Below, piece by piece: positions 12,805 to 64,000 of a stretch of 64,000 bases of DNA. The stretch spans positions 1,406-65,405 of the forward strand of contig JAJZXS010000041.1 of the NCBI GenBank assembly GCA_021806295.1, in the 5' to 3' direction. The DNA comes from Thermoplasmata archaeon (lineage in GTDB: Archaea > Thermoplasmatota > Thermoplasmata > Thermoplasmatales > Thermoplasmataceae). Each line of letters begins with the position of its first letter. Position 1 is the stretch's first letter. The position numbers were made by a program, and so were the translations under genes. The notes below the pieces were generated by a model that was not told the origin of the DNA, made no database searches, and saw only the letters and a program-made list of their open reading frames with translations.

Positions 12805-12879
12805 GCTCCGATGGTGTAGTCAGGCCAAGCATTCCGGCCTTTCGAGCCGATGACTCGGGTTCAAATCCCGGTCGGAGCA
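12805..12879 (+). tRNA. tRNA-Glu (anticodon UUC)
   Basis: Hand-folded. Acceptor GCTCCGA/TCGGAGC, T arm TCGGG-TTCAAAT-CCCGG, anticodon loop CTTTCGA. A T-rich tract follows. Confidence 0.85.
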
Positions 12880-15510: not shown

Positions 15511-15583
15511 TGGGCCTGGCCGGATTTGAACCGGCGATTTCTTCCGTGTGAGGGAAGCGTCATAACCACTGGACCACAAGCCC
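15511..15583 (-). tRNA. tRNA-Val (anticodon CAC)
   Basis: The reverse complement folds with acceptor GGGCTTG/CAGGCCC, anticodon stem CTTCC/GGAAG with loop CTCACAC, and T arm GCCGG-TTCAAAT-CCGGC. Confidence 0.85.
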
Positions 15584-52075: not shown

Positions 52076-52148
52076 AGCTCCGTGGTGTAGTGGCCAAGCA
52101 TTACTGGCTCTGGACCAGCAGACGGCAGTTCGAATCTGCCCGGAGCTA
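52076..52148 (+). tRNA. tRNA-Gln (anticodon CUG)
   Basis: Hand-folded. Acceptor AGCTCCG/CGGAGCT, T arm GGCAG-TTCGAAT-CTGCC, anticodon loop CTCTGGA. Confidence 0.85.
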
Positions 52149-53502: not shown

Positions 53503-53607
53503 GGTACTGTATGGGCTATGTATATAAAAATCTTATACAAACCAGCATGCGACCAAATTGTGCATCACCGGCGTTATATTTTTATCTATCTTATAATTAC
53601 TATCATC

Positions 53608-55161
53608 ATGACAGATTTTTCCAACAGGAGCAGGGATGTATTCCTTATTAAAACAGATATGATTGACCGTGGTGCATTGATGTCCCGGTATAGCAGGACC
53701 CTGAACCTTGATATACGGGATGTTTATGAAAAAGAGTTCAAAGATAATCCAGAAAGGGCCAGTAGTTTCTATAAAAGAATATTTCTGGATTACGGTGATG
53801 AATCCGTGGCAGAGCTTACAACAGCGCAGCTTGGCATACAGAATATTTCCAATGTGCTTTCAAAGGTAATAGAGGAGCCAAGAATAGGGCTGTCATATCT
53901 GGAAAAGTCATCAAGGTATGTCAAATATAGCAGAAAGGTAAATGGCAGCTATCTGTACCTGCATGGAAGAGATGCAGGAATACCTGAAATGGAAGACGAG
54001 TATAATAAAATGTGTACAGACCTTTTCGATTTTTATTCTGAATCATATCCGGTGATGATGAAATATATGGAAGAAAACAATCCTCTGGAAAGTTTTGTGT
54101 TCCAGGTGGGGGGCAAAAATTATAAGTATGAGGATTTAAAATCAGCTGACAGTGATCTAATGGAGAAATCTTACAGGTCATCCCTGCGGTCTGCTGTACT
54201 TGATGAGATAAGGTCTGTTCTGCCGGCATCCACACTTACCAATATGGGACTATCTGGCAATGGAAGGGCGTTCATTTCGCTTATCGAAAGGCTAAATGCC
54301 TATGGAACCCCTGAGAGCCGGAAATATGCAGACATGATATACAGTGAGCTGGAGCCGGAACTTCCGGAACTCATAGATGATGCAGTGACATCCCACGGGA
54401 AGGCCCAGGTTGATTATATAAATTCCAGGGATTCTCTGGGTAAGAATATTCGGTATAATGATTTGGTGCCAGGCAGGATAAGGCTAATAAATTATATGGA
54501 TGAAAGTGCTGCAATTGAAATGGCCACAAGACTGCTTATTTACCAGAATACCGGTGCATATGGAAGCGCATCATTGGCTCCCGGGCAGGAAGAATCCATA
54601 CTGAATGAACTGGCTTCCATGAGGGCAAACAGGAGGCATAAGATCGGCAGGGCATTTGAATCAATAAACTACACCTTTGAGGTAAATATGAATTACGGTG
54701 CGTTCAGGGAATTCCAGAGGCACCGTTTCTTCTCTATCATAAGGAAACCCCTTGGCATTGACTATGGATACGACATGCCGGAAAACCTGGCAGGGATACC
54801 TGACCTGAGGGACAGATATGATAGATTAATGCTGGAAGCCGCTGAATTATATGGAAAAATCAGGGAAAAATATGGGGAAAAACTGGCACAGTATACTGTA
54901 CCCTATGCATACAGATATCCCGTGGTATTCAGCGCAAATTTAAACGAACTTACATACTTTATTGAATTGCGGTCTAATCCCCAGGTGCACCCCGACCTCA
55001 GGAGGGTTGCCTTTGATATTTATAACGAAATAAAGAGGGTCCACCCCAGGCTGGCCACATTGATAAAATTTGTGGACCAGGGAGATTACCGCCTTGGCCG
55101 CCTTCCTGCAGAGGTCAGAAAAGAAACAAAGAAAAAAGACCTTTCCGGGGCACAGGATTAA
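53608..55161 (+). CDS. thyX: FAD-dependent thymidylate synthase, long (double-domain) form
   Basis: A single ThyX signature RHRFFS lies at 54718-54735 in the C-terminal half. I trimmed the tracked ORF (53518) to ATG 53608 because the upstream part is AT-rich promoter-like sequence. Confidence 0.75.
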   Translation: MTDFSNRSRDVFLIKTDMIDRGALMSRYSRTLNLDIRDVYEKEFKDNPERASSFYKRIFLDYGDESVAELTTAQLGIQNISNVLSKVIEEPRIGLSYLEKSSRYVKYSRKVNGSYLYLHGRDAGIPEMEDEYNKMCTDLFDFYSESYPVMMKYMEENNPLESFVFQVGGKNYKYEDLKSADSDLMEKSYRSSLRSAVLDEIRSVLPASTLTNMGLSGNGRAFISLIERLNAYGTPESRKYADMIYSELEPELPELIDDAVTSHGKAQVDYINSRDSLGKNIRYNDLVPGRIRLINYMDESAAIEMATRLLIYQNTGAYGSASLAPGQEESILNELASMRANRRHKIGRAFESINYTFEVNMNYGAFREFQRHRFFSIIRKPLGIDYGYDMPENLAGIPDLRDRYDRLMLEAAELYGKIREKYGEKLAQYTVPYAYRYPVVFSANLNELTYFIELRSNPQVHPDLRRVAFDIYNEIKRVHPRLATLIKFVDQGDYRLGRLPAEVRKETKKKDLSGAQD

Positions 55162-55240
55162 AATTATTCTAATCCTTTAATTTTAATATTTTAATTTTAG
55201 AAAAACTTATATTGAAGAACATATTTATGAATCGATTGTT

Positions 55241-56890
55241 ATGATGTCAGGTCAAACCCCAATATTGATATTAAAGGAAGGTACAGAAAGGCAGCAGGGC
55301 AAAAATGCCCAGAAGAACAACATTGAGGCCGCCAAGGCCATTGCAGATGCAGTAAGGACAACACTTGGGCCCAAGGGCATGGATAAAATGATGGTTGATT
55401 CCATCGGTGATATAATTATATCCAATGACGGTGCAACCATACTGAAGGAAATGGATGTAGACCATCCGACTGCAAAAATGATTGTTGAAGCATCCAAATC
55501 ACAGGACACAGCTGTAGGGGATGGGACAACAACAGTGGTGGTACTGGCTGGAGAGCTTCTAAAGCAGGCTGAGGCATTGCTTGACCAGGGAGTTCATTCT
55601 ACCATTATAGCAGATGGATACCACCTTGGGGCAGAAGAGGCAAGAAAACAGCTCACAGCCATGTCTGTCAGCGCTAATGATGACAAGATACTCAGGAAAA
55701 TTGCAATAACTGCACTGTCCGGAAAAAACACCGGTGTCAGCGCCGAATTCCTTGCAGACCTTGTGGTTAACGCCATAAATGCGGTTTCAGAAACAGACGG
55801 AAAGAAAACCGTGGTTGATACAGCCAACATAAAGGTTGACAAGAAGAGCGGTGGGAGCGCTGCCGATACTAAATTCATAAACGGCCTTATAATAGACAAG
55901 GAAAAGGTTCATTCAAAGATGCCTTCTGTTGTAAAAAATGCCAAGATAGCCTTAATAAATTCTGCTCTGGAAATCAAGAAAACAGAGATAGATGCCAAGG
56001 TCCAGATAACAGACCCATCCAAGATACAGGACTTCCTTGACCAGGAAAGCGATACCCTGAAGGAAATGGCAGAAAAAATAAAGAAATCAGGAGCAAACGT
56101 GGTTCTGTGCCAGAAGGGAATTGATGATACAGTACAGTATTACCTTGCAAAGTACGGAATATACGCTGTAAGAAGAGTCAAGCAGAGCGATATGGAAAAA
56201 CTTGCAAAGGCTACCGGTGCAAAGATGGTAACAGACCTTGACGATATCTCTGAAGAAACAATGGGAAAGGCTGAAACCGTTGAAGAGAGAAAGATAGGCG
56301 ATGACAGGATGACATTTGTCACTGGCTGCGAAAATCCCAAAGCTGTAAACATACTTATCAGGGGCGGGACAGAGCACGTTGTGGATGAGATAGAAAGGGC
56401 ACTCAATGATGCAATAAGGGTTGTTGCAATAACAAAGGAGGACGGAAGATACCTTCCTGGAGGAGGTGCTACAGAGGCCGAGCTTGCAATGAAGCTCAGA
56501 TCATACTCCAACAGCGTAGGCGGAAGGGAACAGCTATCCATAGAAGCCTTTGCCAAGGCCCTGGAAATTATCCCCAGAACACTGGCTGAAAACGCAGGAA
56601 TGGATCCAATAAACACCCTTATCTCACTGAAATCAGAACACGAAAAGGGGAACAAAAACTACGGTGTCGACATGGACGCAAATAAAATCAGCGACATGCT
56701 TGAGGCTGGTGTCTTTGATACATTCCGTGTAAAGACACATGCCATAGAAAGCGCCGTGGAGGTAGCCACAATGATACTCAGGATAGATGATGTCATTGCC
56801 AGCAAGAAATCTTCAGCACCTGCCGGTGGAGCCGGTGGCATGCCTGGAGGCATGGGTGGCGGCATGCCCGGCGGAATGGGCGGATACTGA
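55241..56890 (+). CDS. ths: Thermosome (group II chaperonin) subunit
   Basis: [16 protein letters not shown] and VPGGGA-type motifs, with a C-terminal [18 protein letters not shown] tail. Confidence 0.95.
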
Positions 56891-56905
56891 TTTTTTTAAT
56901 TTTTT
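56891..56905 (+). terminator. Oligo-T archaeal terminator after the thermosome gene
   Basis: T7 then T6 tracts follow the TGA immediately. Confidence 0.5.
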
Positions 56906-56959
56906 CCATATTTTAAAAAGTATAAATATTATTTAATAATGTTTTAACGGTGACATAAA

Positions 56960-57925
56960 ATGATGCAGTTTAATGTTAGTTCTACAGAAAGAGATTATGA
57001 AACTGATTATGATGTAATTGTAATAGGTGCAGGTGCGGCAGGCTATTCTGCAGGTGTGTACATAAAAAGATCAGGCATGAGTGTTGCCATTCTGGAACGT
57101 GAATCGGTGCCAGGCGGAAATACTGCTGTGTCCCCACTTGTTGAGAACTATCTGGGGTATACAGCCATAGAGGGGGCTGACCTTGCCGAGAATTTCAGGA
57201 AGCACTATGCACAGTACGGAAAAATAATTACGGAAATAGATGTACGGGATATCAAAAAAGAGGGAGATAAATTCAAAATCACAACAAACCGTTCTGATTT
57301 CACAGCCAGGGCTGTTATAGTTACAACAGGGACAACCCATAGAAAAATGAACGTAAAGGGTGAGGATGAATATTACGGAAAAGGGATATCATACTGCTCC
57401 ACATGCGATGGCTATTTATTCAAGGGCAAGGACGTAGCAGTTATAGGGGGCGGCAATTCAGGCGCCATATCAGCCCTGTACCTTGATGGAATAGCCAAAA
57501 ATGTATCCATTATAGCACACTCGAAGATTAAAAAGTGTGAGGATGCCTATGTAAAATCCATAGATGAAAAGAAAATCCCATTTATACTGAACGCTGAAAC
57601 CGAAGAATTCCTGGGCGATGGAAAGAAGCTCAACGGATTAAAGTATAAAGACCTGAAAACCGGTGAGGAGAAGACTGTAAAACTGGATGGTGTATTTGTT
57701 TACATAGGTGTGATTCCACAGACATCCTTCCTGAAAAATATAGGGGTGAAACTTGACAATCACGGATTTATCCTTGGTGATGAGAAGGGAAGGACAAACA
57801 TTCCTGGAATATATGCGGCAGGAGACGTTCTATCCGGCAGTGAGGAACAGATAGCAACAGCTGTGGGTGATGGAAGCAAGGCTGCAATAACTCTTTATAC
57901 AGATCTAATAAATAAAAAGTTTTAA
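56960..57925 (+). CDS. trxB: Thioredoxin-reductase-like flavoprotein (low-Mr TrxR type)
   Basis: GAGAAG FAD motif, redox CSTCDG, second Rossmann GGGNSG, and C-terminal AAGDV. Confidence 0.85.
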   Translation: MMQFNVSSTERDYETDYDVIVIGAGAAGYSAGVYIKRSGMSVAILERESVPGGNTAVSPLVENYLGYTAIEGADLAENFRKHYAQYGKIITEIDVRDIKKEGDKFKITTNRSDFTARAVIVTTGTTHRKMNVKGEDEYYGKGISYCSTCDGYLFKGKDVAVIGGGNSGAISALYLDGIAKNVSIIAHSKIKKCEDAYVKSIDEKKIPFILNAETEEFLGDGKKLNGLKYKDLKTGEEKTVKLDGVFVYIGVIPQTSFLKNIGVKLDNHGFILGDEKGRTNIPGIYAAGDVLSGSEEQIATAVGDGSKAAITLYTDLINKKF

Positions 57926-57940
57926 ATTTATTCTTTTTCT

Positions 57941-58855
57941 ATGGAACCTATGAAGAGAGACATACTTTCCGTTGCTGATATGCAGAACGACCTTGAAGAT
58001 ATAATAGATTTATCTATTAGGCTCAAAAAGGATAGAACAATTCAATTTTCAGAAAAGAAGATTCTCGGAATGATTTTTGAAAAGCCCAGCACAAGAACAA
58101 GAATATCACTGGAAGCTGCAATGGAGCAGCTTAATGGGCATGCTATTTACCTGAGCCCGAAGGATATGCACCTTGGCGATGGCGAAACCATAGGAGATAC
58201 AGCCAGAGTAATGTCCAGGTTTCTTGATGTGATCTCATATAGGGCATTCGATTACAGGAATGTCAGGGAACTTGCAAAATATTCAACGGTACCGGTACTC
58301 AATGCACTGGACAATAGGGAGCATCCCATGCAGATTGTTGCAGACTTTATGACCATAATGGAGAAAAAGCACAGGCTTGAAGGGCTTAAAATGGCTTACA
58401 TAGGCGATGGAAACAATATGGCAAACTCACTTCTTATAGGTGCTGCGATAACAGGCATGGACATATCCGTGGCATGCCCGGAACACCATGACCCGGATCA
58501 GGACCTACTATACAGGGCCAGGGACATAGCCCTGAAAACAGGAAGCAGGATAGAGATAGTAAGAGACCCAAGAACTGCAGTGGATTCCTCAGATATAGTG
58601 TATACAGACGTATGGGTCTCCATGGGAGAGGAAAGCGAAAGGGAAAAAAAGGAAAAGGCCTTCAAAAATTTCCAGGTAAATGAGGATCTTGTAGATTTTG
58701 CAGATCGTAATTATATATTCATGCACTGCCTCCCTGCCAGAAGGGGCCTCGAAGTTACCGACAATGTAATAGACGGTATACACAGCGTTGTATTCGATGA
58801 GGCTGAAAACAGGCTTTACAGTGAAAAGGGAGTAATATATACTGTACTCTCATGA
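57941..58855 (+). CDS. argF: Ornithine carbamoyltransferase
   Basis: STRTR, HPMQ and HCLP motifs. Confidence 0.93.
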   Translation: MEPMKRDILSVADMQNDLEDIIDLSIRLKKDRTIQFSEKKILGMIFEKPSTRTRISLEAAMEQLNGHAIYLSPKDMHLGDGETIGDTARVMSRFLDVISYRAFDYRNVRELAKYSTVPVLNALDNREHPMQIVADFMTIMEKKHRLEGLKMAYIGDGNNMANSLLIGAAITGMDISVACPEHHDPDQDLLYRARDIALKTGSRIEIVRDPRTAVDSSDIVYTDVWVSMGEESEREKKEKAFKNFQVNEDLVDFADRNYIFMHCLPARRGLEVTDNVIDGIHSVVFDEAENRLYSEKGVIYTVLS

Positions 58856-58956: not shown

Positions 58957-59517
58957 CTACAATTGCATTCTCCTCCTTGTTCTGATTATAAGCCAGAATA
59001 TTGATGCAACAATCACTGTAGATGTGACAGTGGCAATAATATATACAGAATAAAGAAATATTGAAAGAAAATAAGATGTGTGGTACCCACCTATAATCTG
59101 TATATGGTATAGAATGTAAATAACCACCTCTATTGTTCCATATATAACTGTAAAATAAAGCAGCCAGCCGTAGTTTTCATGTAGCAGGTCATAATTATTT
59201 TTTATTTCATTGTATTCATTAAGTGGCTCATAAACAGCCTGTATTTCACTCTCAGCGTCTGGTATTATTTTCCTGAATATTTCCAGAACATTCCCGTCCC
59301 CGGTTACTCTGATGCCTGATATGATTTTTTCCAGTTCATCCATGAGGTCATTTGAATAAATAAACTCAAGCAATAGTTTTAGGAAAAGAAGGTCCGTTAT
59401 ATTCTTTTTCTTTTGGATATCTCTGAAAAGGATTGCAATCAGCCTGCCGAAGTACAGTATTAGCAATGATGCAATTATAATATAAACCACTATAAGGCCC
59501 GGTAATCTTGGTACCAT
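58957..59517 (-). CDS. Hypothetical membrane protein (N-terminal TM, helical middle, about 3 C-terminal TM)
   Basis: 186 aa clean ORF. No family recognised. Confidence 0.4.
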   Translation of the reverse strand: MVPRLPGLIVVYIIIASLLILYFGRLIAILFRDIQKKKNITDLLFLKLLLEFIYSNDLMDELEKIISGIRVTGDGNVLEIFRKIIPDAESEIQAVYEPLNEYNEIKNNYDLLHENYGWLLYFTVIYGTIEVVIYILYHIQIIGGYHTSYFLSIFLYSVYIIATVTSTVIVASIFWLIIRTRRRMQL

Positions 59518-59661: not shown

Positions 59662-60270
59662 CTAACTCAGATTTAATTTTCTTAAATTGTTTAAATATTC
59701 AATGCCCCTGGTGGTTGCTGTGTATCTCATTCCAGATTCATCTTCTATCATTTGCAGGTAATTCAACTTTAACATTTCACTTATCAAATTTGTACAGTAT
59801 CTATAATTTAAATTGCATCTGTACACAATTTTTGTTATAGATGTGGTCGGGTTTGATATTATTGATTCCAGTATTTCCCTCTGTATGTCAACTTTGGACC
59901 TCTTGGTCCTGGAACTCAGGAATGGTTTTTTTACGGCATTGTTGTCAACCCTCACAGTAATATTATAAAGACCAGAATTAAACCGCAATGATTTGACCAG
60001 CTGTATGTTAATAGAATCTGCCAATTTTTTTATATTGCTATCTATCATGCCAGAGTAAACTGCAATTCTGTTTTCACTTTCTATCTCTTCTGGTATACTT
60101 ACACTTTTTAAAATATTAATCTTGTCAATAATGGTACCTGACAGAAACAATAAAAATATCTTAAGTCCTGTTGTGTCTTTCACAATTTTTGAATAGTTAT
60201 TGCCTGTACCATGAGCCCCAATACACCAGCTTTCAAGTTCAAATGCGTACTCATCATTATTCCTGACCAT
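59662..60270 (-). CDS. Winged-helix (HTH_45-like) DNA-binding protein with uncharacterised N-terminal domain, paralog A
   Basis: C-terminal ITKIVYRCNLNYRYCTNLISEMLKLNYLQMIE...YTATTRGIEYL. It is a paralog of the 60617-61255 product. Confidence 0.6.
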   Translation of the reverse strand: MVRNNDEYAFELESWCIGAHGTGNNYSKIVKDTTGLKIFLLFLSGTIIDKINILKSVSIPEEIESENRIAVYSGMIDSNIKKLADSINIQLVKSLRFNSGLYNITVRVDNNAVKKPFLSSRTKRSKVDIQREILESIISNPTTSITKIVYRCNLNYRYCTNLISEMLKLNYLQMIEDESGMRYTATTRGIEYLNNLRKLNLS

Positions 60271-60616: not shown

Positions 60617-61255
60617 TTATAACGACTTAAGATCATTCAGGTAATTTTTCCCCTCTGAAGTTATTGCATATTTAATGCCGTTCTTATATTCCATAACATC
60701 CACCATACCCTTCTGTATAAGATTTTCAAGCAATTTTATGGCATACTGGTAATTCAGGTTGCATTTGTATATTATCTTTGTAATGTTTATCCCCTCACTG
60801 GAATTAACTGTATCCAGTATTTCCTTGATTATAAATATTTTCTCACGGCGCTGTATTTTTTCATATTTATTCTCAGGTTGCTGGAGTGGCTTTTCCACTG
60901 GACTTGCAGGCACCTCAATTATCTTTGACATATTTGTATGGTTCAGTATTATCTTGTGGCATAGGGTAATATTAAATTTAAGTGATATTTCACGCAATTC
61001 CGGGGGAATCACACCTCCATATATTGCAATTTTTCTGGTATACTGATTCCTTGATACATTCTCTGTAAATTCTTTGATTTTCTTTATCTTGCTATCAGAA
61101 CTTCCCCTGAGCATAACCACTGGAATTTCTTCTCCTGTTTTTCTTGAGCGGAGGATCAGGTCCACCTTATATATATCCACCCTACTGCTGACTATTCCGT
61201 TATACACTTCTTCCCATTCATTGCTGTCAAAAACTATAATTGAATTCTTTACCAT
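60617..61255 (-). CDS. Winged-helix (HTH_45-like) DNA-binding protein with uncharacterised N-terminal domain, paralog B
   Basis: I trimmed the tracked ORF (to 61378) to ATG 61255. That start has AAGGTGG upstream and avoids overlap with the peptidase gene. C-terminal ITKIIYKCNLNYQYAIKLLENLIQKGMV...YAITSEGKNYL. Confidence 0.6.
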   Translation of the reverse strand: MVKNSIIVFDSNEWEEVYNGIVSSRVDIYKVDLILRSRKTGEEIPVVMLRGSSDSKIKKIKEFTENVSRNQYTRKIAIYGGVIPPELREISLKFNITLCHKIILNHTNMSKIIEVPASPVEKPLQQPENKYEKIQRREKIFIIKEILDTVNSSEGINITKIIYKCNLNYQYAIKLLENLIQKGMVDVMEYKNGIKYAITSEGKNYLNDLKSL

Positions 61256-61295
61256 ATTAAACCACCTTCTCTTAAATTTTCTACACATACCATTG

Positions 61296-62495
61296 TTACC
61301 ACCTAACATTTTTCGTTTTCCATGATTTGCTCTTTCTTCCCGGATACAGAAGCATGCCTGCAATCCCAACAAAAACAATTGCCAGTATGAGCTTCGAATA
61401 AATCAAAGCATATCCAAGATATGGAACAGAAAAGAGGACATGTCCTCTTACATCATATGTCGGCACCGGTTCAGGGTCCTTCGACGGATTTGCCACACCC
61501 TTGGTCCTGAAATACTCATGCCCGCCTATGTAGCATATCCTTATTACCTGATGGGCAAACAAAGTACCATTTTCCCAGGGTGCATTGAATACTATAATAT
61601 CACCAACTTTCACAGAGGATGTTTTTATGGGCCCGACAAAAAGTATAGATCCAGGTTTTATAACAGGATACATGCTCCCTGTGGGGTCGCCTATAACGAA
61701 GTAACTGTGATCGGAAATTCCGGGTGCTATTGCTATGGATGCAATGCTCACAATAACCACTATAACTATAAGCCACTTTGAGTTCTTAAGTGCCTTTTTT
61801 ATATTGATCCTATTTCCGGAGAACACGTTTTTGAAATTAAAGGAAGATTTCATTACTAAATCAGAGATGAATATTACCAGAGAAAGGGCAATCATTTCCC
61901 ACATGAGATAGTAATATTTCGAGACATTAATGTTGATAGAAAGTGATGTAAAAAGCATGAACATGAAAAGGAAAACAAGAATTCCTGCAAAATTAAATCC
62001 GGATTTATAAAAAATAAATAGTACTGTCAATGCCAGGAAAAATATGAAAATCATATTGAAAACTGCTATGGAAAATATTGTCTTTGTGTCTATCAGTACA
62101 TAATATGGGTAATAAAATAGTAAGACAGTAGACCCGAAAATTAACCCCTCTATGGCAAAATTCTTTATTCCTGATTTTTCAATGCAAAGCAGGACAAGGT
62201 ATAATGAAAATGCTGTAATGGCAGAATAGGCCAGCGTTGAGGGAAGAACGCCAGCATAGAAATGGAAAGTAATTTTATGGAATGCTATTCCTGGCTCCAG
62301 AAGAAAAATTTCCATAAATATTCCCAGGGCTGCGACCTTTACTATATCCCTGTTAATGTTTAGCCTTATGCTGAAAACCATCGGAAGCAGCGGGATAAGT
62401 GATACCAGCACTGTTATCCATGTATTTTTCAGATAAGCTAAGGATAGCTGGTAGACTATTATGTACGCAAGCACAAGAGACAGTATTCTTTTCAT
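61296..62495 (-). CDS. Archaeal/ER-type (SipW-like, S26B) signal peptidase I fused to a ~235 aa polytopic N-terminal membrane domain
   Basis: The C-terminal ~160 aa carries GSMYP (Ser), VGDIIVF, AHQVI (His) and TKGVANPSKDP (Asp), plus flanking TM anchors. The N-terminal part has about 7-8 hydrophobic segments. Confidence 0.7.
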   Translation of the reverse strand: MKRILSLVLAYIIVYQLSLAYLKNTWITVLVSLIPLLPMVFSIRLNINRDIVKVAALGIFMEIFLLEPGIAFHKITFHFYAGVLPSTLAYSAITAFSLYLVLLCIEKSGIKNFAIEGLIFGSTVLLFYYPYYVLIDTKTIFSIAVFNMIFIFFLALTVLFIFYKSGFNFAGILVFLFMFMLFTSLSININVSKYYYLMWEMIALSLVIFISDLVMKSSFNFKNVFSGNRINIKKALKNSKWLIVIVVIVSIASIAIAPGISDHSYFVIGDPTGSMYPVIKPGSILFVGPIKTSSVKVGDIIVFNAPWENGTLFAHQVIRICYIGGHEYFRTKGVANPSKDPEPVPTYDVRGHVLFSVPYLGYALIYSKLILAIVFVGIAGMLLYPGRKSKSWKTKNVRW

Positions 62496-63442
62496 TTCTC
62501 AACCCCTCTGTAGGAATAGACATAATTTTTGAAATCATGGGAGACGAAGAAAAGTGAACTCTTTTTTATATAGAATAATGGTTCATGGTAGGCATCGGAT
62601 AATTTGACCAGTTCATCAAATGTATCCACTTTTGTCACAATACCCTTAGGCATTGCTTCCACATCTATTATCCTGTCACCGAACTCCTGGAGTTTCAGAT
62701 CCAGTTTGCTTTTCTTCTTTGGCACACCAATGTACGTGACAGCCAGGAAAACAAAAAGTATGGCTGATGGAACTATTATTATATATCCATATAAAGCTGG
62801 CAGTCCTATTATGGGCTTGCTGCCGTAGGCATCTTTTATATCCACTGTTCCGGTCATGCTGGCCGGGCTGCCATATTTAACCGTATAATAATGATTCCCC
62901 TGGCTTATCAGAAGGTATGTGCTTGAGGAGATTCCACTAACAGGATCCTGGACAGTTATATTTATGTCAACTGTGGGGCTTGTTCCTGTATATCCAAGCT
63001 GGCTATCTATCTCAGCCGACTGATTATAAAGGCATGAAAGGTTTAAAGGAATCACCATGCCTGAAATAGTCTGGCTTCCGTTGAATTCCAGTGTTGAACT
63101 GTTTGAGCTGAATAACTTGGACCATGAAGGGTTTGATGATATTACACCTATGGAATAGTCAATAAATACGGTTTGTTTACTGGAAGATAGAAAATTTGCG
63201 GTTATATATACTGTCATATTTTTCAGTAGTTTTTCATATATAACGGTTGGATTGTAAAGGTGATTTGAACTATACAGGCTATTATTTGTTATATTGGCCT
63301 CAAGGTTTACCTGCGCGCTTGATACAAAATTGGTTTCAGGAATTTCTTTGCTATGCTCCCTGGGTTCAAGTATAATAAATGAAGAAAAAATAATAGCGAC
63401 TGCCAGAATTATTATAATCGCCAGATGCAGTTTTTTATTCAT
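62492..63442 (-). CDS. Two-TM protein with a sequon-rich extracytoplasmic domain and small cytoplasmic C-terminal domain (DUF5305-like architecture)
   Basis: N-terminal TM (LHLAIIIILAVAIIFSSFIIL), eight N-x-S/T sequons by my count, and a second TM (YGYIIIVPSAILFVFLAVTYIGV). ATGA overlap with the peptidase gene. Confidence 0.55.
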   Translation of the reverse strand: MNKKLHLAIIIILAVAIIFSSFIILEPREHSKEIPETNFVSSAQVNLEANITNNSLYSSNHLYNPTVIYEKLLKNMTVYITANFLSSSKQTVFIDYSIGVISSNPSWSKLFSSNSSTLEFNGSQTISGMVIPLNLSCLYNQSAEIDSQLGYTGTSPTVDINITVQDPVSGISSSTYLLISQGNHYYTVKYGSPASMTGTVDIKDAYGSKPIIGLPALYGYIIIVPSAILFVFLAVTYIGVPKKKSKLDLKLQEFGDRIIDVEAMPKGIVTKVDTFDELVKLSDAYHEPLFYIKKSSLFFVSHDFKNYVYSYRGVEK

Positions 63443-63485
63443 ATAAATTGGATGTATGTATTAGTTTAACCTTTATTTATTAAAA

Positions 63486-63519
63486 GTACTGAGTTATGAT
63501 ATTTATTTAATATCAGTAC
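63486..63519. promoter_or_regulatory. Inverted repeat GTACTGA-N20-TCAGTAC in the divergent promoter region
   Basis: Perfect 7-bp arms at 63486-63492 and 63513-63519, separated by an AT-rich spacer. It lies between the two divergent start codons (63442 and 63651). Confidence 0.3.
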
Positions 63520-63650
63520 ATGATATACTTATGTATTATAAAAACTATTATTTTTTACCTGTTTTATGGTCTAACTCTTTTAATTACTGCACCATATTTT
63601 AATTTCCTGTTTTATTATTTACAGATAACAGATTAATTTCTGGTGACTAA

Positions 63651-64000
63651 ATGAACAAAAAGTTAGCCGTATTATTGGTAGTGCCAATTCTTATTGCAAT
63701 GGGAGGAACATTCGCTTTCTCCGCATTCTCTGGGAGTTCTAGCGTTGCCATTAATAGCACAGCAGGCCATTTGACCTGGGATGAAAGTGGGATATTGGTA
63801 GCTACGAATGCAAATAACACACCATTGACCGTAGAGGGTCCAAATGGGGTTATATATGAGATAGGAGCGTCTGAACCATATGCGCCCGGCAGCAGCCATC
63901 TAAATCTTGGAACTCTAGCAATGAGCACTGCAAACAGCGGGAAGGAATATGTCGTGAATGCAACCAACTTTGCGCCTGGTGAATATATAGAGGTACAGGT
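63651..64000 (+). CDS. 5' part of a secreted protein with a SipW-cognate (TasA/camelysin-type) signal peptide; runs off the window
   Basis: ATG at 63651 is preceded by GGTGA 4 nt upstream, and the frame is open to the window end. Translation: MNKKLAVLLVVPILIAMGGTFAFSAFSGSSSVAINSTAGHLTWDES...NFAPGEYIEVQ. It is not in the ORF track because no stop lies in the window. Confidence 0.65.
   Translation, partial: MNKKLAVLLVVPILIAMGGTFAFSAFSGSSSVAINSTAGHLTWDESGILVATNANNTPLTVEGPNGVIYEIGASEPYAPGSSHLNLGTLAMSTANSGKEYVVNATNFAPGEYIEVQ

Follow-up and report, generated by a model that had tools for sequence, protein, structure and literature searches.

Organization of the locus at the edge of the window

The window, as the whole 64,000-nucleotide stretch of DNA analyzed here is called, ends within a plus-strand gene whose 5' 350 nucleotides lie at 63651..64000 (codons 1–116 of 229) and which is referred to below as the cargo gene. 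Its frame cannot start upstream of the ATG at 63651-63653, because a stop codon in the same frame, TAA, occupies 63648-63650 directly before it. A Shine-Dalgarno-like GGTGA can be read in the sequence at 63642..63646 on the plus strand, with a spacer of 4 nt to the start codon. When translated, the frame is open for 116 codons up to the end of the window. The product begins with MNKKLAVLLVVPILIAMGGTFAFSAFSG, includes the segment NFAPGEYIEV, and carries the three sequons NST, NNT, and NAT at positions 35, 55, and 103. The start codon, its GGTGA element, the stop-free run of about 116 codons, and the three sequons had all been proposed in the original prediction, and each was found as described.

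At this position the list of open reading frames contains only two minus-strand entries, 63647-63967 and 63672-63899. By its own description the list leaves out frames that run off an end, and the absence of the cargo frame from it is therefore mechanical; the prediction that the gene would be overlooked by this list was correct. The continuation of the gene is provided by contig L007, which matches window positions 63641-64000 with 0 mismatches and carries the frame to a stop codon after 229 codons, with no early stop and no frameshift. A protein, P0013, is 100% identical to the cargo product across all 116 residues, and an AF2 model was also obtained. Because a cluster mate of P0013 sits on a contig of 66,859 bp, the truncation is probably a plain cut by the window and not a broken gene. 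A contig end at the cargo gene, which had been suspected from a downstream mobile element, is less likely given the mate on the 66.9-kb contig.

The minus-strand frames, of 106 and 75 aa, are likewise open, but the chance that one of them is the true gene and the plus-strand frame an accident is negligible. The plus-strand product has a complete 229-codon homologous frame and 76 family representatives, public gene calls match it, and the dN/dS in this frame is 0.1-0.25. Purifying selection on the plus-strand frame identifies the two listed frames as antisense shadows, in agreement with the earlier view that they are spurious. The edge ORF is a genuine 229-codon gene, from an acidophilic archaeon without a cell wall that is related to Ferroplasma.

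A conserved signal peptidase module next to the cargo gene

The cargo gene is separated from a divergently oriented gene by an AT-rich intergenic region (63443..63650) that is 96-100% identical between strains and presumably holds both divergent promoters. A scan for sigma-70 promoters and terminators was uninformative, the host being an archaeon. The gene on the other side (62492..63442, minus strand) codes for a DUF5305 protein of 316 aa, which scores 37.8 bits on PF17231 against a cut-off of 29. Hydropathy indicates two transmembrane (TM) segments, one at the N terminus and the other at about 210-242, with an outside domain between them and a cytoplasmic domain at the C-terminal end. By analogy with the literature, it is a putative accessory subunit of a signal peptidase. 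Its gene overlaps by 4 nt with the peptidase gene, which suggests that the two are co-translated.

The peptidase (61296..62495, minus strand) is a polytopic archaeal/ER-type signal peptidase I (SPase I) of 399 aa, which TIGR02228 recognizes with 92.8 bits (cut-off, 51.85). A Kyte-Doolittle plot shows roughly eight N-terminal hydrophobic segments and an anchor at 235-263 ahead of the catalytic domain, and one more segment at 357-387 near the C terminus; the count is approximate, and at 9-10 segments it agrees with the about ten TM helices of the AbpX-type SPase I. The catalytic triad is intact: Ser-274, His-315, and Asp-340 align with Ser-56, His-96, and Asp-122 of human SEC11A and are invariant in 5 orthologues. 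The score on the SipW equivalog NF046067 is 59.1 bits, below the cut-off of 190, and the enzyme is SipW-like in type and not a SipW orthologue.

Two winged-helix regulators of the HTH_45 family follow on the minus strand. The first (60617..61255, PF14947 E 4.7e-13) has 212 aa, as in public contigs L001-L006, and the listed 253-aa ORF starting at TTG is an over-extension. The second (59662..60270, 202 aa, PF14947 E 6e-12) is a syntenic paralogue, ~31% identical to the first. Next is a conserved small membrane protein of 186 aa (58957..59517, minus strand) that has no family match; homologues of it are found next to the module in L008, L010, L013, L020, and L023.

The module of cargo, DUF5305 protein, SPase I of ~390-400 aa, HTH_45 protein, and small TM protein is kept in Ferroplasmaceae UBA567, Acidiplasma aeolicum, Thermoplasmata TL1-4.bin55, and Picrophilus oshimae, and also on the more distant metagenome contig L020. 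The pairing of SPase I and DUF5305 genes beside the subunit gene recurs at five further loci. The window itself has the arrangement of AbpX- and Tafi-type loci, in which SPase I and DUF5305 genes stand beside a subunit gene. The proposal that the edge ORF encodes the cargo candidate of the locus holds up, as it is the only candidate substrate beside the SPase I and DUF5305 pair and the pairing is conserved. Contig L020 encodes, after the module, three small paralogues as well as a protein of 1,407 aa that has the same N terminus, PKD/PEGA domains, and a C-terminal TM anchor. This layout corresponds to the major subunit, minor subunits, and anchor of pilus loci. No tip, anchor, or minor subunit is present next to the cargo gene in the window.

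An HMM built from cargo residues 1-45 gave 50-78 bits on the cargo proteins of the modules and on the L020 paralogues and giant protein, and no more than 7 bits on the other ~340 ORFs (353 tested). Within the 64-kb window the motif of the cargo N terminus occurs once. An Rfam scan of the window found three tRNAs only, all far from the locus.

Signal peptide and N-terminal extension of the cargo protein

Hydropathy, an AF2 helix, and conservation delimit the signal peptide at codons 1-24 (63651..63722, plus strand). An MNKK n-region leads into a hydrophobic helix (residues 3-22), after which comes GGTFAFS. The N terminus, MNKKLAV, contains no RR and so differs from the twin-arginine signals of Tat-fimbriae; from its sequence, the product is predicted to be a Sec-type pre-protein. 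Gly-19, Ala-22, Phe-23, Ser-24, Ala-25, Phe-26, Ser-27, and Gly-28 are invariant in 36 sequences of the cargo family. Cleavage is proposed at AFS24|A25, although a cut after Ala-22 or Ser-27 would also be possible. In the hhalign register, the AbpX sequence TYA|QW lies opposite the proposed site.

The signal peptide is followed by an extension, AFSGSSSVAINSTAGHL, at codons 25-41 (63723..63773, plus strand), defined by an AF2 coil and by conservation. The coil, with a pLDDT of 61-71, connects the signal helix to the first strand of the core. Situated just past the cleavage region, this extension is the best-conserved part of the family. [quoted passage not shown] By analogy, the extension with Phe-26 at +2 is a candidate donor strand. 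Phe-26 aligns with Trp-2 of AbpX, so that the aromatic residue at +2 is present. In the AbpX donor strand, an acidic residue at +4 binds Ca2+; this residue is absent from the cargo, because the invariant Gly-28 aligns with AbpX Glu-4. Of the two features of an AbpX-like donor strand, the cargo has the aromatic residue and not the acidic one.

The signal peptide had been called diagnostic in the original prediction. What remains of this is the layout, GGT[FYW]A followed by an aromatic residue at +2. TIGR04088, which requires at least 19 bits, gave no match at E <= 10 with either P0013 or its first 56 residues, whereas Bacillus subtilis TasA scored 38 bits (E 1.2e-9) as a control in the same run. 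The HMM of the family N terminus likewise does not retrieve TasA or AbpX. The likeness to TasA-type signals is one of layout only.

The cargo family and its relationship to TasA, camelysin, and AbpX

The cargo family is a Thermoplasmatales-specific family of secreted, Ser/Thr/Asn-rich beta-sandwich proteins. It has 76 representatives among 1.84 billion proteins searched, from Ferroplasmaceae, Acidiplasma, Picrophilus, and Thermoplasmata metagenome-assembled genomes. A full-length relative, which has 39 close homologues, was required as the query, because the 116-aa fragment retrieved only 3 fragments in a search of 5.8 billion proteins. Throughout the family the N terminus is invariant (…GGTFAFSAFSG…). 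The databases consulted list the family as "hypothetical protein," and UniProt calls the Picrophilus homologues "membrane associated protein." Homologues of the cargo include WP_276922738, KQB34814, and WP_011177891. The mature protein has ~205 residues and is acidic, with a pI of ~4.1 at only ~8% Asp plus Glu, and its sequons predict that it could be heavily N-glycosylated. The sequence contains no HExxH or other metal-binding motif and the protein has no C-terminal anchor. A search of NCBIfam with the cargo found nothing except TIGR04090 at E 0.053.

Similarity to TasA centers on the motif VNATNFAPGEYIEVQVTITNNGTVGF, the first half of which (codons 99-116) lies inside the window at 63945..63998 on the plus strand and which is detected with PF12389 and hhalign. 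PF12389 (Peptidase_M73) matches residues 82-126 of P0013 with 20.6 bits (E 4.3e-4), below the gathering score of 22.5 bits; for comparison, authentic AbpX itself reaches 18.6 bits with this profile. Matches at E <= 0.1 are seen for 26 of 63 family members, none of which is reported above the cut-off. The hhalign match to the TasA/CalY profile reaches 80-86% (E 5e-6 to 1.4e-5), over 29-30 columns only, and is unchanged with or without signal peptides. With signal peptides included, the match to the AbpX family is 90.9% over 177 columns; after trimming it is 42-47% over 36 columns only. The 91% value is therefore not proof of homology, since it mostly collapsed once the signal peptides were removed. 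Single TasA or AbpX sequences gave 65-70%, and alignment A1 against AbpX gave 32%.

When the PDB was searched with hmmsearch, AbpX came first (E 0.0041) and TasA followed at 0.045-0.058, with VNATNFAPGEYIEVQVTITNNGTVGF as the core of the AbpX alignment. A bacterial S-layer domain (9f8e) and PsaR, the latter matched through its signal-like N terminus only, were judged generic. Other beta-sandwich families contain the PG...N.G motif as well, and CARDB and DUF11 gave one weak match each. No unrelated family was found for the cargo protein. The earlier suggestion that NFAPGEYIEV resembles TasA and camelysin is borne out to the extent that the PF12389 and TasA/CalY matches fall there; the resemblance consists of one motif of ~30 residues, below the gathering score and with no fold match. 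Judged from sequence, the homology of the cargo to TasA and AbpX appears real but thin.

The AF2 model of the cargo (pLDDT 87.9) is beta-rich and comprises the signal helix, a 19-residue coil (23-41), and a 13-strand beta domain. The coil has counterparts in the N-terminal extension of monomeric AbpX, which is unstructured, and in the donor strand of TasA. Foldseek searches of the PDB with two AF2 models (pLDDT 78.9 and 87.9) returned nothing at E <= 0.001. The TasA fibre (8aur_A) ranked 12th (E 0.079, TM 0.25), and AbpX and AbpA are absent from the top 50. Matches to integrins, secretins, adaptins, and C2 domains were insignificant and geometrically poor, and nothing is inferred from them.

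A hypervariable core in the cargo gene

An allelic cassette starts at about codon 40 and extends to about codon 185; it occupies 63770..64000 on the plus strand and continues to about position 64200 beyond the window. Nucleotide identity of the cargo gene to contigs L001, L003, and L004 drops from 95-100% to 61-76% in the cassette and recovers at the 3' end. The dS within the cassette is ~1.0-1.1 and the dN/dS ~0.22-0.25, while the genome background around it is otherwise near-clonal.

Comparison with known fibre systems

An SPase I together with a DUF5305 protein accompanies AbpX and the subunits of Tat-fimbriae (Tafi), which belong to the TasA superfamily (bioRxiv 10.64898/2026.01.04.697558; PMC11821415, PMC12337348). 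The abpX loci contain a 10-TM peptidase and transcription factors (bioRxiv 10.64898/2026.01.04.697558). AbpX from Pyrodictium abyssi is, like the cargo, a small acidic secreted beta-sandwich subunit with a pI of ~4, an aromatic residue at the proposed +2 position, and an N-terminal extension that is unstructured when the monomer is modeled. The two types of locus also share a TIGR02228-type SPase I with many TM segments, a DUF5305 accessory protein, and transcription factors. On the other hand, the trimmed homology is not significant, there is no fold match, and AbpX has 14.6% Asp plus Glu compared with ~8% in the cargo. The cargo core is hypervariable, unlike the AbpX loci, and its hosts, acidophiles of the Thermoplasmatales, are not listed in the AbpX paper (bioRxiv 10.64898/2026.01.04.697558).

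In the tapA-sipW-tasA and calY loci of Bacillus, as in the cargo locus, an ER/archaeal-type signal peptidase of its own adjoins the cargo gene. TasA and the cargo have in common GGT[WYF]A, an aromatic residue at +2, a stretch of ~13 residues, and (A/S)G.L, as well as the NLxPGD...N.G motif. However, the cargo stays below the TIGR04088 and PF12389 thresholds, Foldseek does not match it significantly to the TasA fibre, its peptidase is a 399-aa polytopic protein that is not a SipW equivalog, and a DUF5305 partner takes the place of TapA.

The Tafi locus (TafA/C/E, the peptidase TafD, and the DUF5305 protein TafG) likewise places SPase I, DUF5305, and a regulator by the subunits. Here there is genetic proof that subunit processing needs the peptidase, as deletion of TafD blocks TafA processing, and assembly occurs via strand donation (PMC11821415, PMC12337348). 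The Tafi subunits carry twin-arginine signals in contrast to the MNKK start of the cargo, and TafD differs from the cargo-locus peptidase in having 4 TM segments and in the order of its domains. No sequence similarity of the cargo family to Tafi or DUF1102 proteins was detected. The AbpA pili of Pyrobaculum and the Saci_0406 threads of Sulfolobus are TasA-superfamily donor-strand filaments with small, glycosylated, beta-rich subunits and SPase I-type signals. Their operons lack a dedicated peptidase and DUF5305, whereas the cargo locus has both, and neither the PDB hmmsearch nor Foldseek matched the cargo to AbpA or Saci_0406 in sequence or fold. The nearest published analogue is the AbpX-type locus, ahead of the TasA/camelysin and haloarchaeal Tat-dependent systems.

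Proposed function of the cargo protein

The cargo is probably a cleaved subunit of a donor-strand fibre, processed by the neighboring peptidase and related to TasA and AbpX. In the mechanism that we propose, the dedicated, divergently transcribed peptidase and its DUF5305 partner would cut the cargo in the invariant GGTFAFS|AFSG region. This would free an acidic beta-sandwich protein of ~205 residues (pI ~4.1) that is predicted to be heavily N-glycosylatable. It would belong to the TasA superfamily as a remote member, its locus being of the AbpX/Tafi type. The extension AFSGSSSVAINSTAGHL, with Phe-26 at +2, would enter the next subunit as a donor strand, and subunits linked in this way would form extracellular fibres on wall-less cells. 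The two HTH_45 proteins may regulate the locus.

Other readings of the protein would change its processing or its activity. The hydrophobic N terminus could be an uncleaved signal anchor, with residues 3-22 as a tether and the beta domain outside, in keeping with the single unbroken helix in the AF2 model and the UniProt name of the Picrophilus homologues. We consider this improbable: the invariant small residues Ala-22, Ser-24, and Ser-27 directly after the helix satisfy the -3/-1 rule, the conserved neighbor is a dedicated signal peptidase, and TasA and AbpX, with homologous layouts, are cleaved at that place. A short charged N terminus before a hydrophobic helix would also suit a type IV pilin-like protein with a class III signal peptide cut by a prepilin peptidase (PibD/FlaK). 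Yet inspection shows no [KR]-G/A site ahead of the hydrophobic stretch (none before residue 5), the small residues after the helix and the neighboring peptidase are both of type I, and no pilus ATPase or platform genes are nearby in the window, all of which makes a pilin highly implausible. Equally remote is a camelysin-type (Peptidase_M73) metalloprotease, although the sole Pfam match is to PF12389, "Camelysin metallo-endopeptidase." That match is sub-threshold and covers a structural motif only, the cargo has no HExxH or other metal-binding motif, and the characterized PF12389 members are the fibre subunits TasA and CalY. Protease activity of PF12389 members is itself doubtful.

A different question is whether the cleaved protein polymerizes. 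It could instead be secreted and cut by the neighboring peptidase to give a monomeric or loosely attached envelope glycoprotein with a generic Ig-like or jelly-roll beta-sandwich; as such it might be a coat, an adhesin, or a binding protein. In favor of this reading, no donor-strand fibre subunit matches the cargo models significantly. The TasA/AbpX similarity is limited to a motif common to several beta-sandwich families, and the bacterial S-layer domain 9f8e scores about like AbpX. Many solitary cargo paralogues are distant from any peptidase, and exposed surface antigens in general tend to vary strongly between alleles. Even so, we regard a non-polymerizing protein as unlikely, if a serious candidate. 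A simple coat protein would have no use for the N-terminal extension that follows the cleavage region, yet this is the best-conserved part of the cargo, and the same extension in the three small paralogues and the membrane-anchored giant of L020 fits co-assembly. All characterized loci with DUF5305 and SPase I so far make donor-strand fibres, and no C-terminal anchor would keep a monomer on a wall-less cell.

Implications of a possible donor-strand fibre in the Thermoplasmatales

The papers on AbpA, AbpX, and Tafi that were read do not mention the Thermoplasmatales in connection with TasA-like proteins or such loci, and the locus type of a TasA-superfamily subunit with a dedicated polytopic signal peptidase I and DUF5305 would here be extended to this order. 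An ORF list without edge ORFs misses the one candidate substrate of this conserved peptidase module. Ferroplasma and other Ferroplasmaceae, as well as Acidiplasma, have no cell wall; Picrophilus has an S-layer.

A more specific picture is tentative, and we hold it to be possible without expecting it. The cargo family could be the major subunit of an undescribed, acid-stable, Ca2+-independent donor-strand fibre that would give archaeal biofilms in acid mine drainage their protein scaffold at pH ~1, with a beta-domain lacking a recognizable PDB counterpart and a core exchanged between strains. The candidate subunit carries Gly where AbpX has its Ca2+-binding acidic residue. If this picture is true, exchange of the exposed core would make strains vary in antigenicity or kin recognition, much as bacterial pilins do. 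The recombining hypervariable core offers a way to study how surface antigens change in acid-mine-drainage communities. For wall-less Ferroplasma and Acidiplasma, the fibre subunit would be a testable candidate for what holds their biofilms together at pH ~1.

Start, frame and extent of the cargo gene

The plus-strand start region of the cargo gene reads ...ctGGTGActaaATGaac..., with the ATG at 63651-63653 and GGTGA at 63642-63646, separated by a 4-nt spacer as originally predicted. Because an in-frame TAA (63648-63650) directly precedes the ATG, 63651 is the first possible start. From there, 116 codons are open to the end of the window (translated as MNKKLAVLLVVPILIAMGGTFAFSAFSGSSSVAINSTAGHLTWDES...NATNFAPGEYIEVQ), in agreement with the earlier estimate, and all three sequons named previously are present in the fragment. 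The frame had been described as missing from the ORF list, which indeed holds only two minus-strand ORFs in this region; its absence is mechanical, because the list leaves out any ORF extending past either end.

Through the adjoining 316-aa protein, this locus was found on six public contigs, and the cargo gene there has 229 codons. The downstream sequence, named originally as a check, was obtained from contig L007, which has no mismatch to window positions 63641-64000. The frame continues to a stop codon (229 codons), and its product, P0013, is identical to the window fragment at all 116 residues (100%). A cluster mate of P0013 is carried on a 66,859-bp contig, and the truncation is therefore probably only the window cut. 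Between alleles, dN/dS in the plus-strand cargo frame rises along the gene, from 0-0.1 (codons 1-40) through 0.22-0.25 (codons 41-185) to 0.44-0.48 (codons 186-229). Both minus-strand ORFs are therefore antisense shadows.

The cargo family

A search of 5.8 billion proteins yielded 39 relatives of the cargo, all named hypothetical, from Ferroplasma, Acidiplasma, Picrophilus and related MAGs. Among 1.84 billion representatives, just 76 proteins match the cargo profile at E <= 0.001. In 36 close members, residues G19, A22, F23, S24, A25, F26, S27 and G28 are invariant, and three stretches are conserved: the N-terminal ~60 residues, VNVTNFAPGEYVE...ITNNGTVGF, and the C-terminal GLGNSNG.DVNHYQGSDFSLNI.LNVVSDP. 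The middle is variable, and some members carry Pro-rich or Cys/Trp/Asn-rich insertions there. These insertions of 20-50 residues occupy columns ~146-260 of the close-family alignment A1 (P0013 residues ~129-165); they are Pro-rich in P0021, P0022, P0024, P0025, P0028 and P0031, and Cys/Trp/Asn/Gly-rich in P0034, P0035 and P0018.

The mature cargo has a pI of ~4.1, about 1% K+R, 34% S+T+N, seven sequons and no Cys. An AlphaFold2 model built from a 63-sequence alignment (pLDDT 87.9) predicts a beta-rich protein with an unstructured N-terminal extension: a helix (residues 3-22) and a coil (23-41) precede a domain with 13 strands and a single helix.

A hypervariable cassette in the cargo core

Over the peptidase and DUF5305 genes, the intergenic region and the DNA for the signal peptide, contigs L001, L003 and L004 match the window at 95-100% identity; at about 63770-64200, the cargo core (L007 nt 130-560), they match at only 61-76%. 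Toward the 3' end of the gene identity recovers to 91-100%, and in L003 it stays at 97-100% for another ~600 nt past the gene. The dS of ~1.0-1.1 and dN/dS of ~0.22-0.25 within this segment point to a hypervariable allelic cassette, in which old, functional alleles would have been swapped by recombination. The same values rule out recent positive selection or assembly noise as its origin. Donors could be paralogues elsewhere in related genomes; solitary cargo paralogues are also present in the genomes that carry the module.

Some 225 nt beyond the stop codon of the cargo gene, L007 contains a mobile-element gene (925-2073) whose middle part matches Transposase_mut (PF00872, 58 bits), with weak phage-integrase matches at its N terminus. 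The same gene is present in L003 (3-428, minus strand), and the DNA downstream of the cargo gene in L001 and L004 differs from this element.

The neighboring module

The other genes of the module are divergent from the cargo gene. The DUF5305 protein (PF17231, 37.8 bits against a cut-off of 29) is encoded with a 4-nt overlap with the gene for a 399-aa SPase I. The C-terminal part of this peptidase matches TIGR02228, the model for archaeal signal peptidase I (92.8 bits against a cut-off of 51.85), and the SipW equivalog model scores 59 bits, under its cut-off. On its N-terminal side there are about eight additional hydrophobic segments. The catalytic triad is intact: Ser-274, His-315 and Asp-340 align with that of SEC11A and are invariant in all five orthologues.

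Two HTH_45 winged-helix proteins follow the same divergent orientation. Public gene calls start the first (60617-61255, minus strand) at an internal ATG, giving 212 aa; a 253-aa ORF starting with TTG (60617-61378, minus strand) extends into the 3' part of the peptidase gene, and the internal start removes this overlap. The last gene (58957-59517, minus strand) encodes a membrane protein of 186 aa that matches no family. It adjoins the module in Ferroplasmaceae, Acidiplasma, Picrophilus, Thermoplasmata MAGs and the distant metagenomic locus L020, and is possibly a part of the system that has gone unrecognised. Beyond it, 53518-58855 is a housekeeping neighborhood that includes a 547-aa ORF. By eye it holds thermosome subunit, thioredoxin-reductase-like flavoprotein and ornithine carbamoyltransferase ORFs, of which only the latter two have a family match in the precomputed Pfam calls for L001. 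tRNAs lie at 12805-12879, 15511-15583 and 52076-52148, and the overall G+C content is 39.7%.

The module is conserved, with proteins at 30-68% identity, in Ferroplasmaceae UBA567, Acidiplasma aeolicum, Thermoplasmata TL1-4.bin55 and, in rearranged form, Picrophilus oshimae. In P. oshimae DSM 9789 (L023:6655-7855) a frameshift divides the peptidase homologue into calls of 147 and 270 aa that overlap in different frames; the gene is either a pseudogene or contains a sequencing error. In L020 (812-12172) a unidirectional array combines HTH_45 and the small membrane protein with a homologue of DUF5305, a peptidase of 393 aa, three small paralogues of the cargo and a protein of 1,407 aa. The latter shares the cargo N terminus, begins with a cargo-like domain, continues with PKD and PEGA domains and ends in a C-terminal TM anchor. 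The set looks like a major subunit with minor subunits and an anchor.

The N terminus and the peptidase

An HMM of cargo residues 1-45 was run on 353 ORFs. It scores 50-78 bits on all cargo-type proteins of these loci, including the L020 set, versus <=7 bits on the remaining ~340, and thus the N-terminal motif is found specifically in proteins that accompany this peptidase. This specificity is the best available argument that the cargo proteins are peptidase substrates, and we consider it likely that the cargo is a substrate of its neighbor.

The hhalign register pairs the pre-proteins of TasA (...GGGTWA/AFNDIKSKDATFASGTLDL), AbpX (...AIGLTYA/QWSETLSLSATISTGSLDV) and the cargo (...MGGTFAFS/AFSGSSSVAINSTAGHLTW). 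It points to a cut after S24, with A22 (-3) and S24 (-1) in keeping with the rule; cleavage after A22 or S27 is also conceivable. If cut after S24, the mature cargo would have an aromatic residue at +2, Phe-26, as counterpart of TasA Phe-29 and AbpX Trp-2, and its first core strand would begin about 14 residues later. The donor strand comprises residues 28-38 in TasA and Trp-2 to Ile-12 in AbpX, where Glu-4 binds Ca2+ (bioRxiv 10.64898/2026.01.04.697558). Position +4 of the cargo, residue 28 (63732-63734), is Gly without exception in A1 and at least 90% conserved in the wider alignment A2. It aligns with AbpX Glu-4 and TasA Asp-31, and the cargo lacks the carboxylate. We speculate that losing carboxylate/Ca2+ chemistry would make sense at pH ~1, where carboxylates are protonated, and could be an adaptation. 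The three-way register is read from alignments and is not statistically secured.

Comparison with TasA and AbpX

The TIGR04088-type signal peptide proposed originally was not found, as the cargo gave no match to that model, compared with 38 bits for a TasA control, a sequence that itself scores 513.8 bits on NF046066 as validation. The proposed likeness to TasA/camelysin held at the level of a motif. PF12389 scores 20.6 bits on P0013 (E 4.3e-4), below the gathering score of 22.5, and matches 26 of the 63 family members at E <= 0.1, far above any other Pfam family; experimentally characterised AbpX itself reaches just 18.6 bits. Against PDB sequences, the cargo-family profile ranks AbpX first (E 0.0041), with TasA at E 0.045-0.058. 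With a six-sequence AbpX alignment, hhalign reaches 90.9% across 177 columns, starting at the first residue, and falls to 42-47% over 36 columns when signal peptides are removed. With a TasA/CalY profile of nine sequences (B. subtilis TasA and eight annotated Bacillus plasmid genes) it gives 80-86% with or without signals, confined to the 29-30-column motif vNvsNLaPGd...tItNtGtvg. Foldseek found no PDB match at E <= 0.001 for either cargo model, and the TasA fibre 8aur_A ranked 12th (E 0.079, TM 0.25). The cargo falls short of all formal thresholds for the TasA superfamily. The signal for a remote relationship is consistent, if thin, and we lean toward homology.

Proposed mechanism

In the mechanism that we propose, the cargo would be exported by Sec, cleaved by the neighboring peptidase-DUF5305 pair and N-glycosylated, and would polymerise by donor-strand exchange into extracellular fibres, with the HTH_45 proteins presumably controlling the locus. 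Fibre formation is close to an even call, shaded slightly toward doubt. Its serious rival, a cleaved surface glycoprotein that does not polymerise, would suit the absence of a fold match and the fact that the PG...N.G motif is generic, but the N-terminal extension is conserved and the L020 locus has several subunits and an anchor; we regard it as rather unlikely. That the N terminus is an uncleaved signal anchor is improbable. A camelysin-type protease and a type IV pilin are both very improbable, as the cargo has no metal motif and its signal layout is wrong for a pilin. A spurious cargo frame is scarcely credible, and that the frame is a real gene is practically certain.

Subunits of AbpX (bioRxiv 10.64898/2026.01.04.697558) and of the haloarchaeal Tat-fimbriae, Tafi (PMC11821415, PMC12337348), are likewise accompanied by DUF5305 and SPase I, in some cases fused to each other. 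When the Tafi peptidase TafD is deleted, TafA stays unprocessed and no fibres form (PMC11821415, PMC12337348). Systems that combine a TasA-superfamily subunit with its own polytopic SPase I and a DUF5305 protein are already known. The Thermoplasmatales cargo family is unannotated and has no mention in the available AbpA, AbpX and Tafi papers; the present locus provides a useful annotation, with an acidophile twist and an allelic cassette.
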